A stretch of 64,000 bases of DNA from Escherichia coli (GTDB lineage: Bacteria > Pseudomonadota > Gammaproteobacteria > Enterobacterales > Enterobacteriaceae). The position numbers and the translations under genes are program-made. The stretch is from assembly GCF_001677475.2 (NCBI RefSeq), contig NZ_CP015229.1; one strand, 5' to 3'. The notes below the pieces were generated by a model. That model was not told the DNA's origin. It searched no databases and saw only the letters and a list, made by a program, of their open reading frames with translations. Below, piece after piece: positions 22,272-26,059 of this stretch. Each line of letters opens with the position of its first letter. Position 1 is the stretch's first letter.

Positions 22272-23882
22272 ATGATGAGCAATGTTAAGAAAAAAGATGT
22301 GCCGCTGATAAGCATCAGCCTGGTGGCCATTCTTTTCATCGCAGCTGCATTAAGCCTTTTCCCACAACAATCGGCCGACGCGGCCAACGCAATATACACT
22401 TTTGTTACGCGTACGTTAGGTTCCGCCGTACAGGTATTGGTTTTGCTGGCAATGGGACTGGTGATTTATTTAGCCACCAGTAAATACGGCAATATTCGTC
22501 TTGGCGAAGGAAAACCGGAATACAGCACGCTCTCCTGGCTGTTTATGTTTATTTGTGCCGGTTTAGGTTCTTCTACGCTTTATTGGGGGGTTGCTGAATG
22601 GGCCTATTATTATCAAACGCCTGGATTAAATATCGCACCGCGTTCACAACAGGCACTCGAATTTAGCGTTCCCTACTCCTTCTTCCACTGGGGCATCAGC
22701 GCCTGGGCAACTTATACGCTGGCCTCATTAATCATGGCTTATCACTTTCATGTGCGGAAAAATAAAGGGCTGAGCCTTTCCGGCATTATTGCTGCTATTA
22801 CCGGCGTTCGCCCGCAAGGCCCGTGGGGGAAACTGGTCGATTTGATGTTCCTGATCGCCACTGTCGGCGCACTGACCATTTCCCTTGTTGTCACCGCAGC
22901 AACCTTTACCCGTGGGCTTTCCGCGCTGACCGGTTTACCCGATAACTTTACCGTACAGGCATTTGTGATCCTGCTTTCCGGCGGCATTTTTTGCCTAAGC
23001 TCGTGGATTGGTATCAACAACGGTTTGCAACGTCTAAGCAAAATGGTTGGCTGGGGCGCGTTCCTGCTGCCATTACTGGTGCTGATTGTCGGTCCAACCG
23101 AATTTATTACCAACAGCATCATCAATGCCATCGGCCTGACCACGCAAAACTTCCTGCAAATGAGCTTATTCACCGATCCGCTTGGCGATGGTTCATTTAC
23201 CCGCAACTGGACCGTTTTCTACTGGCTGTGGTGGATCTCATACACGCCTGGCGTAGCAATGTTTGTCACCCGCGTTTCCCGCGGTCGTAAGATTAAAGAA
23301 GTTATCTGGGGACTGATCCTCGGCAGCACCGTCGGTTGCTGGTTCTTCTTCGGCGTAATGGAAAGCTATGCCATTCACCAGTTTATCAATGGTGTAATCA
23401 ACGTCCCACAGGTGCTGGAAACACTGGGCGGCGAGACAGCTGTGCAGCAAGTTCTGATGTCGTTGCCAGCCGGTAAATTGTTCCTCGCCGCATACCTGGG
23501 CGTGATGATTATTTTCCTTGCCTCGCATATGGATGCGGTGGCCTACACCATGGCGGCAACCAGTACGCGTAATCTCCAGGAAGGTGACGATCCTGACCGT
23601 GGGCTGCGTCTTTTCTGGTGCGTGGTAATTACCCTGATCCCGCTTTCAATTCTTTTCACTGGCGCGTCGCTGGAAACGATGAAAACCACCGTCGTACTCA
23701 CAGCCCTTCCGTTCCTCGTCATTTTACTGGTGAAAGTCGGCGGATTTATTCGCTGGCTGAAACAGGATTACGCCGACATTCCGGCTCATCAAGTTGAACA
23801 TTATCTCCCGCAGACACCGGTTGAAGTCCTGGAAAAAACGCCAGTGCTCCCTGCGGGAACCGTATTCAAAGGCGACAACTGA
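22272..23882 (+). CDS. yeaV: BCCT-family (betaine/carnitine/choline) transporter YeaV
   Basis: ORF 22272..23882; CaiT/BetT-like sequence; start uncertain (K-12 annotation is shorter as I recall). Confidence 0.8.
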
Positions 23883-23913
23883 GCGCCATCATCCTAACGA
23901 TAAAGGTATCCCT

Positions 23914-25038
23914 ATGAGCAATCTGAGCCCTGACTTTGTACTACCCGAAAATTTTTGCGCTAACCCGCAAGAGGCGTGGACCATTCCTGCCCGTTTTTAT
24001 ACCGATCAGAACGCCTTTGAACACGAAAAAGAGAGCGTCTTCGCCAAAAGCTGGATTTGCGTCGCTCATAGCAGCGAACTGGCGAATGCCAATGATTATG
24101 TGACGCGTGAGATCATTGGCGAAAGCATCGTGCTGGTACGTGGTCGTGATAAGGTTTTGCGCGCGTTCTATAACGTTTGCCCGCACCGTGGTCATCAGTT
24201 ATTGAGCGGCGAAGGGAAAGCGAAAAATGTGATTACCTGCCCGTATCACGCCTGGGCATTCAAACTCGATGGTAACCTGGCCCATGCGCGTAACTGCGAA
24301 AACGTCGCCAATTTCGATAGCGACAAAGCGCAACTGGTTCCAGTACGTCTGGAAGAATATGCCGGATTCGTCTTCATCAACATGGACCCCAACGCCACCA
24401 GCGTAGAAGATCAGTTACCCGGTCTGGGCGCGAAAGTGCTGGAAGCCTGCCCGGAAGTCCACGATCTGAAACTGGCGGCCCGCTTTACCACCCGCACGCC
24501 TGCCAACTGGAAGAACATTGTCGATAACTATCTCGAGTGCTATCACTGTGGTCCGGCGCATCCAGGTTTCTCCGACTCCGTACAGGTTGATCGTTACTGG
24601 CACACCATGCACGGTAACTGGACGCTGCAATACGGTTTCGCCAAACCGTCAGAACAGTCTTTCAAATTCGAAGAGGGCACGGATGCGGCATTCCACGGTT
24701 TCTGGCTGTGGCCGTGCACGATGCTGAACGTCACCCCAATCAAAGGGATGATGACGGTCATTTATGAATTCCCGGTGGATTCTGAAACTACCCTGCAAAA
24801 CTACGATATTTACTTCACCAATGAAGAGTTAACCGACGAGCAAAAATCGCTGATTGAGTGGTATCGCGATGTGTTCCGTCCGGAAGATTTACGTCTGGTT
24901 GAAAGCGTACAGAAAGGGCTGAAATCGCGTGGCTATCGTGGTCAGGGGCGCATCATGGCCGACAGTAGCGGTAGCGGAATTTCCGAACATGGTATCGCCC
25001 ACTTCCATAATCTGCTGGCGCAGGTGTTTAAGGACTAA
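23914..25038 (+). CDS. yeaW: Rieske-type oxygenase subunit YeaW (carnitine monooxygenase CntA-like)
   Basis: ORF 23794..25038; start set at MSNLSPDFV; Rieske motif CPHRG...CPYHAW. Confidence 0.85.
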   Translation: MSNLSPDFVLPENFCANPQEAWTIPARFYTDQNAFEHEKESVFAKSWICVAHSSELANANDYVTREIIGESIVLVRGRDKVLRAFYNVCPHRGHQLLSGEGKAKNVITCPYHAWAFKLDGNLAHARNCENVANFDSDKAQLVPVRLEEYAGFVFINMDPNATSVEDQLPGLGAKVLEACPEVHDLKLAARFTTRTPANWKNIVDNYLECYHCGPAHPGFSDSVQVDRYWHTMHGNWTLQYGFAKPSEQSFKFEEGTDAAFHGFWLWPCTMLNVTPIKGMMTVIYEFPVDSETTLQNYDIYFTNEELTDEQKSLIEWYRDVFRPEDLRLVESVQKGLKSRGYRGQGRIMADSSGSGISEHGIAHFHNLLAQVFKD

Positions 25039-25093
25039 TGACATCGGCGGCGGTATTTTCCGCCGCTGGGCTGATTTTTGATGGAGTACAGCA

Positions 25094-26059
25094 ATGTCAG
25101 ACTATCAAATGTTTGAAGTACAGGTGAGCCAGGTTGAACCGCTTACAGAACAGGTGAAACGCTTCACGCTGGTGGCAACCGATAGCAAACCATTACCTGC
25201 GTTTACTGGAGGAAGTCACGTCATTGTGCAGATGAGCGATGGTGATAACCAGTACAGCAATGCGTATTCACTACTGAGTTCGCCGCATGACACCTCTTGT
25301 TATCAGATTGCCGTTCGGCTGGAGGAAAACTCGCGCGGCGGTTCCCGCTTTTTGCATCAGCAGGTAAAAGTGGGCGATCGGTTAACGATTTCAACGCCTA
25401 ATAACCTGTTTGCGCTAATTCCCTCGGCCAGAAAGCATCTGTTTATCGCGGGCGGCATTGGTATCACCCCTTTCCTGTCGCACATGGCAGAGTTGCAACA
25501 CAGCGACGTCGACTGGCAGCTACATTACTGCACGCGAAATCCAGAAAGTTGCGCATTTCGTGATGAGCTAGTCCAACATCCGCAGACGGATAAAATCCAT
25601 TTTCATCACTCATCGACCGGAACGCGTCTTGAATTAGCGCGATTATTGGCGGATATCGAACCTGGCACACATGTTTATACCTGTGGCCCCGAGGCGCTAA
25701 ATGAAGCGGTAAGAAGTGAAGCTGCGCGTCTGGACATCGCCGCCGATACGATGCACTTTGAACAATTTGCGATTGAAGACAAAACCGGCGATGCATTTAC
25801 CCTGGTGCTTGCCCGTTCCGGTAAAGAGTTTGTGGTGCCGGAAGAGATGACTATTTTGCAGGTTATTGAAAATAATAAAGCAGCGAAAGTGGAATGTTTA
25901 TGTCGTGAAGGGGTATGCGGAACCTGCGAAACGGCAATACTGGAAGGTGAAGCTGACCATCGGGATCAGTATTTTAGCGATGAAGAGCGTGCCAGCCAGC
26001 AAAGTATGTTGATCTGTTGTTCGCGTGCGAAGGGTAAACGCCTGGTGTTGGATTTGTAG
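25094..26059 (+). CDS. yeaX: Oxidoreductase subunit YeaX (FNR-like reductase with C-terminal 2Fe-2S ferredoxin, CntB-like)
   Basis: ORF 25094..26059, 321 aa; C-terminal Cys cluster CREGVCGTCE. Confidence 0.85.
   Translation: MSDYQMFEVQVSQVEPLTEQVKRFTLVATDSKPLPAFTGGSHVIVQMSDGDNQYSNAYSLLSSPHDTSCYQIAVRLEENSRGGSRFLHQQVKVGDRLTISTPNNLFALIPSARKHLFIAGGIGITPFLSHMAELQHSDVDWQLHYCTRNPESCAFRDELVQHPQTDKIHFHHSSTGTRLELARLLADIEPGTHVYTCGPEALNEAVRSEAARLDIAADTMHFEQFAIEDKTGDAFTLVLARSGKEFVVPEEMTILQVIENNKAAKVECLCREGVCGTCETAILEGEADHRDQYFSDEERASQQSMLICCSRAKGKRLVLDL

Follow-up and report, generated by a model that had tools for sequence, protein, structure and literature searches.

The described systems closest to the dmlR-dmlA-yeaV-yeaW-yeaX cluster, which is examined here in a 64-kb stretch of Escherichia coli DNA (contig NZ_CP015229.1; the window, to whose full length all coordinates refer), are the same locus of the laboratory strains K-12 and BL21 (b1799-b1803) and the carnitine catabolic cluster of Acinetobacter baumannii, carR / mdh-bcct-hyd-cntA-msadh-cntB (Zhu 2014; Breisch 2019, 2022; Piskol 2024). 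The A. baumannii pathway has been reconstituted. Carnitine is converted to trimethylamine (TMA) and malic semialdehyde, which malic semialdehyde dehydrogenase (MSA-DH) turns into D-malate (PMC11353897), and the decarboxylating MDH releases pyruvate and CO2 from D-malate (PMC11353897, Piskol et al. 2024). The E. coli counterparts of carR, mdh, bcct, cntA as well as cntB were called orthologous in that work (45, 72, 56, 72 and 52% identity, respectively), with hyd and msadh missing. YeaW and YeaX purified from E. coli strain KO11FL act in vitro as a carnitine monooxygenase that contains FMN as well as [2Fe-2S], Rieske and Fe centres, and the reaction L-carnitine + NADH + O2 to TMA + malic semialdehyde has been demonstrated for them (PMC9508527). 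YeaW/X and CntA/B are regarded in the field as one enzyme (PMC5433236).

Gene content and comparison with known clusters

The segment 22272-26059 extends exactly from the start of yeaV to the stop of yeaX, and dmlR and dmlA lie just upstream (19910-22021). The five genes of the cluster are as follows.

19910-20833, minus strand: dmlR, regulator of the LysR type, orthologous to CarR of A. baumannii
20936-22021, plus strand: dmlA, D-malate/tartrate dehydrogenase of the decarboxylating type, orthologous to MDH of A. baumannii
22272-23882, plus strand: yeaV, full-length BCCT-family transporter of 536 aa, whose orthologue in A. baumannii is the carnitine transporter Aci01347
23914-25038, plus strand: yeaW (cntA), 374 aa, predicted oxygenase subunit of carnitine monooxygenase
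25094-26059, plus strand: yeaX (cntB), 321 aa, NADH-dependent FMN/[2Fe-2S] reductase subunit

The genes dmlR and dmlA are divergent with a spacer of 102 bp, and yeaX is followed by rnd on the minus strand. In the list of open reading frames the entry for yeaW is 23794-25038; the annotated start at 23914 gives the protein of 374 aa. The region is 98.8% identical to its best match among 5426 complete E. coli genomes, and the RefSeq annotation of that locus contains the same five genes with identical names. A sequence-only reading of this DNA had described a BCCT transporter, a Rieske oxygenase and a reductase with a 2Fe-2S cluster beside a divergent dmlR-dmlA pair. The arrangement is confirmed by the coordinates and by the annotation of the near-identical locus, and each of the domains by profile searches.

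Gene identities, enzyme chemistry and evolutionary derivation jointly characterize the segment, with a probability of about 80%, as the form that the aerobic carnitine catabolic cluster of proteobacteria takes in Escherichia. The link between yeaVWX and dmlRA is already published and is established knowledge. The remark of the sequence-only reading that the family is known was apt, as the cluster is well studied, and its suggestion of a linked pathway that turns a quaternary amine into a C4 acid agrees with the published A. baumannii route, in which this acid is D-malate (PMC11353897). Since the E. coli cluster is orthologous to that of A. baumannii, the C4 acid is most likely D-malate here as well, with DmlA as the orthologue of its consumer.

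The five genes common to the window and the A. baumannii cluster have the same order and orientation. Compared to the locus of A. calcoaceticus, the proteins of the window are 45% (DmlR), 72% (DmlA, against the cluster MDH), 54% (YeaV, against the cluster BCCT), 73% (YeaW, against CntA) and 50% (YeaX) identical. The A. baumannii cluster contains hyd and msadh, whereas the window has neither. Furthermore, the dmlA-yeaV spacer of the window is 250 bp long and carries a terminator and its own box, while the corresponding junction in Acinetobacter is operonic (30–110 bp). Growth on carnitine is established for Acinetobacter, but tests of E. coli (K-12, B and BL21) were negative.

The K-12/BL21 locus has the chromosomal position, between leuE and rnd, and the five genes in common with the window. 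Protein identities are 99.2–100% for DmlR, DmlA, YeaV and YeaW and 97.2–97.5% for YeaX; YeaW is 99.7% identical to K-12 YeaW. The two strains differ from the window by the absence of positions 22175-22399, whereas the window encodes an intact YeaV of 536 aa. The clusters of Citrobacter resemble the window in the rnd-flanked site, the flanks and the boxes upstream of dmlA and yeaV, and their YeaW is 92–94% identical. In six of nine Citrobacter loci msadh is located between yeaW and yeaX; the Escherichia cluster is without it.

YeaW as the predicted oxygenase subunit

YeaW consists of a Rieske domain (Pfam, E = 1e-23) and a Ring_hydroxyl_A domain. The structure of A. baumannii CntA (pdb entry 6y8j) matches with E = 3.5e-197 and 658 bits, and the next best Rieske oxygenases in the PDB reach E = 1e-30 to 1e-33 with at most 118 bits. 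All 19 cofactor and substrate residues of CntA that were checked are kept in YeaW; their roles were defined in earlier work (PMC7948474, PMC9508527). In the alignment, the Rieske ligands Cys89, His91, Cys109 and His112 correspond to Cys86, His88, Cys106 and His109 of CntA. The triad of the mononuclear iron (His211, His216 and Asp325) is kept, as is the bridging Glu208 (Glu205 in CntA), a glutamate in place of the usual aspartate. This bridging-glutamate signature has been described (PMC5433236).

The substrate pocket of CntA (Tyr203, Tyr225, Phe258, Asn270, Tyr295, Tyr315 and Phe319) and the iron-adjacent cysteine pair Cys206/Cys209 are identical in YeaW, where the pocket residues are Tyr206, Tyr228, Phe260, Asn272, Tyr297, Tyr317 and Phe321 and include the pi-cation tyrosine. 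The docking residues Arg83, Lys104 and Lys117 are present. These features support the assignment of YeaW as the probable oxygenase subunit of a carnitine monooxygenase, a group V Rieske oxygenase.

Two other members of group V, GbcAB and Stc2, have the fold, the Rieske and mononuclear-iron chemistry and the class of trimethylammonium-type substrates in common with YeaW but are far more distant. The glycine betaine monooxygenase GbcA was ruled out as an identity for YeaW, whose score with the GbcA model is 154 bits against a cutoff of 670; the stachydrine demethylase Stc2 (pdb entry 3vca) was ruled out likewise, with 110 bits against 658 bits for CntA. The homology search could have placed YeaW and YeaX in an unrelated oxygenase subfamily. 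Instead, YeaW falls squarely into the CntA subfamily, and YeaX is of the phthalate dioxygenase reductase type.

Within Escherichia, YeaW is 98–99.7% identical at the amino acid level, with a dN/dS of about 0.01.

YeaX, the reductase subunit

YeaX contains the Pfam domains FAD_binding_6, NAD_binding_1 and Fer2, the last being a C-terminal plant-type [2Fe-2S] domain, and matches phthalate dioxygenase reductase (pdb entry 2pia) with E = 7e-56. The cysteines of the cluster (Cys270, Cys275, Cys278 and Cys308) are visible in the sequence. Arg271, Lys313 and Asp320, the importance of which was established by mutagenesis in earlier work (PMC9508527), are present as well.

YeaX varies far more than YeaW within Escherichia (86–97% amino acid identity, dN/dS up to 0.22) and is the fastest-evolving of the five proteins.

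Conservation of the gene neighbourhood

DmlR has the Pfam domains HTH_1 and LysR_substrate. The nearest NCBIfam model is TtdR, with a score below the cutoff of that model. DmlA reaches 562.4 bits with TIGR02089 (cutoff 470.4), and the Pfam domain Iso_dh covers residues 7–355.

A scan with YeaW, using one genome per species, yielded 80 loci. Enough flanking sequence for neighbours within 10 kb to be recorded was available for 72 of them, which represent 14 genus-level groups. CntB is present in all 72 loci, a DmlR-like protein in 68, a DmlA-like protein in 62, MSA-DH in 57, a BCCT transporter in 55 and Hyd in 24. The loci derive from Escherichia, Citrobacter, Yersinia, Serratia, Xenorhabdus, Acinetobacter, Pseudomonas, Paraburkholderia, Vitreoscilla and others, and the linkage of DmlA and YeaW covers Gamma- and Betaproteobacteria. 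The DmlR homologue is divergent from dmlA in 68 of the 72 loci. In Enterobacterales, the dmlR-dmlA pair adjoins the other genes of the cluster in every locus, whether msadh is present or not. Because DmlA is found near YeaW in 62 and DmlR in 68 of these loci, the juxtaposition of dmlRA and yeaVWX is not due to chance.

Pairwise dN/dS values against the window are 0.00–0.11 for dmlR, dmlA, yeaV and yeaW (0.01–0.04 for yeaW) and 0.07–0.22 for yeaX. The comparisons include E. albertii with a dS of 0.6–1.0 and thereby span the whole period since the loss of msadh. All five genes are under purifying selection, and the cluster is not decaying in the lineages that keep it.

Loss of msadh from the Escherichia cluster

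In most genera msadh is located between cntA and cntB. The gene is absent from all Escherichia loci and from some loci of Citrobacter, Xenorhabdus, Yersinia and Serratia; hyd is absent from all Enterobacterales loci examined. In Escherichia, yeaW and yeaX are separated by only 55 nt (25039-25093) with no msadh in between. This spacer contains one further feature.

25044-25069, plus strand: GC-rich hairpin in the yeaW-yeaX spacer (10-bp stem with 8 GC pairs), marking the site of msadh loss

A stretch of 58 nt (25036-25093) folds with -26.2 kcal/mol (z = -4.5). The spacer, GC hairpin and T-run included, is homologous to the one between msadh and cntB in Citrobacter; the upstream junction differs. 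In the Citrobacter loci without msadh, the stop codon of yeaW is directly followed by GGCTGTAA, which corresponds to the last 8 nt of msadh. After it come the hairpin and the ribosome-binding site of yeaX, as in the relatives that contain msadh. The homologous spacers and different junctions indicate that msadh was deleted, in separate events in Escherichia and in some Citrobacter. Thus, the cluster of Escherichia derives from one with msadh between cntA and cntB, a gene that it has since lost.

An aldehyde dehydrogenase that could substitute for MSA-DH was sought within the 64-kb window, and none was found. E. coli GabD (pdb entry 3jz4) matches MSA-DH with E = 3.5e-208. It keeps the catalytic residues Cys290 and Glu256 and the substrate-binding residues Arg166, Arg284 and Ser447 of MSA-DH, and was named as a candidate for the missing step by Piskol et al. 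(PMC11353897). A paralogue encoded elsewhere in the genome, with GabD as the candidate, may carry out the oxidation of malic semialdehyde; judged from this residue conservation, we rate the chance as somewhat short of even.

YeaV and its allele states

YeaV matches the model NF007412 over residues 1–536 of 536 with 1031 bits (cutoff 647), and the Pfam domain BCCT covers residues 14–499. The nearest solved structures are DddT and CaiT, with the alignment starting at residue 16; the Trp-box is present. By analogy with its family, YeaV is expected to import trimethylammonium compounds. Carnitine transport by the Acinetobacter orthologue has been reported (PMC6562126). When the K-12 allele was overexpressed, carnitine was depleted, as were many other metabolites (PMC10971958). 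The TCDB entry lists YeaV as uncharacterised.

The alignment with K-12 C600 defined a deletion that is also present in BL21(DE3).

22175-22399, plus strand: 225-bp segment present in the window and deleted in K-12 and BL21

The segment comprises 97 nt upstream of yeaV (including part of a conserved block described below) with the ribosome-binding site, and it extends over the start codon and 128 nt at the 5' end of the coding sequence. The coding part amounts to about 43 codons and includes the first membrane helix. Accordingly, PGAP annotates yeaV of C600 and BL21(DE3) as a pseudogene that lacks its N-terminus. The full-length form of yeaV is found in E. albertii and Citrobacter, which makes the deletion the derived state. 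Thus, the window carries the intact yeaV allele, the form missing in K-12 and BL21, and is otherwise an ordinary copy of the cluster.

Of the 5426 complete E. coli genomes, 2930 (~54%) carry the segment and with it an intact 5' end of yeaV. About 1436 genomes (~26%, by subtraction) contain at least 80% of the 8-kb region without the 225-bp segment. The remaining state, in about 1060 genomes (~20%), is the absence of dmlA'-yeaVWX; here only a dmlR stub of 168 bp and a dmlA stub of 156 bp are left between leuE and rnd, at 2911-3234 of one such locus sequence. In the E. whittamii representative the frame of yeaV is lost at about codon 185 (8448-9966 of the locus sequence), and the other four genes are intact.

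Putative regulatory elements

Four elements were located in the intergenic regions around dmlA.

20839-20854, plus strand: box 1, GTGTTTTATGTTTCAC, a GTG-N10-CAC dyad and candidate DmlR recognition site
22040-22069, plus strand: terminator-like hairpin with T-run 3' of dmlA, separating dmlA from the yeaV transcription unit
22123-22139, plus strand: box 2, GTGTTTTATGGCTTTCC, 149 nt upstream of the yeaV ATG, with the left half as in box 1
22148-22189, plus strand: conserved block AATTGTTTAATTTATGTAAC...AATTTGTTAA, promoter-proximal and upstream of yeaV, a candidate activation site or core promoter

Box 1 abuts the start codon of dmlR, with the dmlA ATG about 97 nt downstream. Within the 64-kb window the 13-mer TTCGTGTTTTATG has exactly two copies, one at 20836 next to the dmlR start in the divergent spacer and one at 22120, 150 nt upstream of yeaV, and none of 100 shuffled sequences contained two or more matches. 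A box of the GTGTTTTAT type upstream of both dmlA and yeaV is conserved across Enterobacterales. All 25 Enterobacterales loci contain its core GTGTTTT(A/G)T between dmlA and yeaV, and 18 of the 25 contain it between dmlR and dmlA; elsewhere, both strands of 535 kb gave 12 hits as background. In Citrobacter, Yersinia and Serratia the box upstream of yeaV has the form GTG-N11-CAC with TTCAC as its right half. Inspection by eye of the dmlA-bcct spacers of Pseudomonas for the same box revealed no more than a weakly similar CGTG, and a GTTAAC repeat that is different. Literature searches, with Zhu et al. 2014 and Lukas et al. 2010 left unread, found no paper linking DmlR and yeaV. The two boxes are predicted LysR recognition sites at the two promoters, and it is conceivable, at a little less than even odds, that DmlR co-regulates dmlA and yeaV via the GTGTTTTAT-type box.

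The hairpin after dmlA has a 10-bp stem followed by T7 (-15.6 kcal/mol, z = -4.5) and is conserved in Escherichia and Citrobacter. Since such a strong terminator-like structure follows dmlA, yeaV probably has its own promoter. The putative promoter is suggested by the terminator together with the AATTGTTTAATTTATGTAAC...AATTTGTTAA block, which is kept in the spacers of Escherichia, Citrobacter, Yersinia and Xenorhabdus, and by the usual weakness of LysR-dependent promoters. An Rfam scan of 19000-27500 (E ≤ 1) found only SroD and a sub-threshold match to the dmlA terminator, with no riboswitch or leader upstream of yeaV.

Surroundings of the cluster

For each of four stretches of the window that were searched, the best identity in complete E. 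coli RefSeq genomes is at most 98.5–99.2%. The small RNA SroD (Rfam RF00370, 115 bits) is located on the minus strand at 27259-27344 between rnd and fadD, as is typical of E. coli. An element of the IS21 family lies at 44766-47017 between yobD and mntP. It comprises an IstA-like open reading frame of 499 aa and an IstB of 251 aa (Pfam IstB_IS21, E = 7e-62). The element is missing from the yobD-mntP site in the best-matching E. coli genomes, and multiple copies are found elsewhere, including on plasmids.

Discussion

In the proposed mechanism, YeaV would import trimethylammonium compounds, and electrons would pass from NADH via the FMN of YeaX and its plant-type [2Fe-2S] cluster to trimeric YeaW. 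The product of YeaW would collapse to TMA and malic semialdehyde, or to succinic semialdehyde in the case of gamma-butyrobetaine. Malic semialdehyde would then be oxidised to D-malate and, by decarboxylation of the DmlA type, yield pyruvate; these steps are transferred from A. baumannii by orthology. The position of dmlR-dmlA beside yeaVWX would be explained by a DmlA-type enzyme that decarboxylates the D-malate derived from carnitine. A paralogue such as GabD would provide the missing aldehyde step, and DmlR would control the promoters of dmlA and yeaV via the GTGTTTTAT-type box.

Several observations weigh against a functional carnitine pathway of this kind. The cluster contains neither msadh nor hyd, and no MSA-DH homologue is present within the 64-kb window. 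In Escherichia, box 2 has a degenerate right half (TTTCC in place of TTCAC), a scan of the dmlA-yeaV interval for consensus sigma-70 sites found no promoter-like site, and binding of DmlR at box 1 or box 2 is a prediction. The deletion in yeaV in ~26% and the absence of the cluster from ~20% of the complete E. coli genomes indicate that it is dispensable. L-carnitine as the only carbon source does not support growth of K-12, B or BL21, BL21 extract showed no carnitine monooxygenase activity, and no condition with expression was found in GEO (PMC11353897). Because yeaV is truncated in K-12 and BL21 (yeaV of strain B was not checked), these published results are uninformative for the intact allele.

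An extended version of the carnitine pathway would apply to lineages with intact yeaV. DmlR would activate dmlA and yeaVWX via GTGTTTTAT, the cluster would allow carnitine and/or gamma-butyrobetaine to be used aerobically, and GabD or Sad would stand in for MSA-DH. This combination of steps is doubtful. If true, the published failure of E. coli to use the pathway would be an artefact of testing K-12 and BL21 with their yeaV deletion, with the reservation on strain B made above. Alternatively, the substrate in Escherichia could be gamma-butyrobetaine, the dead-end product of the anaerobic cai pathway. It would be cleaved to TMA and succinic semialdehyde, and dmlA would be outside the route. Housekeeping GabD or Sad would oxidise succinic semialdehyde to succinate, so that msadh would be dispensable. 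High activity of CntA and YeaW orthologues on L-carnitine and gamma-butyrobetaine alike, as given in PMC9508527 and PMC5433236, is in line with this, and GabD is a true succinic semialdehyde dehydrogenase. It also fits that Enterobacterales lost msadh more than once, with yeaVWX still under purifying selection. However, if D-malate were irrelevant, neither the adjacency of dmlR-dmlA in every Enterobacterales locus nor the conserved box common to the upstream regions of dmlA and yeaV would be expected. We consider this reading, with gamma-butyrobetaine as the substrate and succinic semialdehyde passed to GabD or Sad, to be rather improbable. For clusters without msadh and/or mdh, Piskol et al. 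2024 proposed that they trim intracellular carnitine that serves as a compatible solute (PMC11353897). The E. coli cluster would then not feed carbon metabolism, and the dmlRA neighbourhood would be inherited rather than functional. The lack of growth on carnitine and of detectable expression in laboratory strains agrees with this proposal, as does the missing msadh, but the E. coli cluster keeps mdh (dmlA) and the tested strains K-12 and BL21 have a broken yeaV. The conserved common box and the strong constraint on five genes point to a coordinated unit, and such a trimming function is unlikely.

A role as an evolutionary remnant that is heading to loss and not expressed in nature would account for the ~46% of complete genomes with either the 5' deletion of yeaV or the deletion of the whole cluster, for the frameshifted yeaV of the E. 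whittamii representative and for the absence of cntA expression from faecal samples, as cited in PMC11353897. Yet dN/dS values of 0.01–0.1 up to a dS of ~1 in the lineages that retain the cluster are incompatible with neutral decay since the loss of msadh, and the reading frames and catalytic residues of the window are all intact, so that a mere remnant is very unlikely. Finally, dmlRA and yeaVWX might be functionally unrelated units that are neighbours by coincidence. They are separated by the terminator-like hairpin, and DmlA is said to have independent roles in D-malate use. Linkage in 62 of 72 species loci of Gamma- and Betaproteobacteria effectively refutes a coincidence, which is also at odds with the biochemical link through D-malate demonstrated in A. 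baumannii (PMC11353897), and its probability is close to nil.

The window leaves the established picture of the enzyme unchanged. The additions made here (the scar of the msadh deletion, the common box and the deletion in laboratory strains) are modest leads for specialists rather than discoveries. They concern a gene in wide use, as cntA/yeaW is the metagenomic marker for TMA derived from carnitine, the precursor of the cardiovascular risk metabolite trimethylamine N-oxide (TMAO), and E. coli is the source of most cntA reads from the gut. The E. coli locus exists in three states: intact (~54%), with the 5' deletion of yeaV as in K-12 and BL21 (~26%) and without the cluster (~20%). Conclusions about activity in vivo, as well as estimates of TMA potential from cntA counts, should therefore take into account both the allele and the missing msadh.

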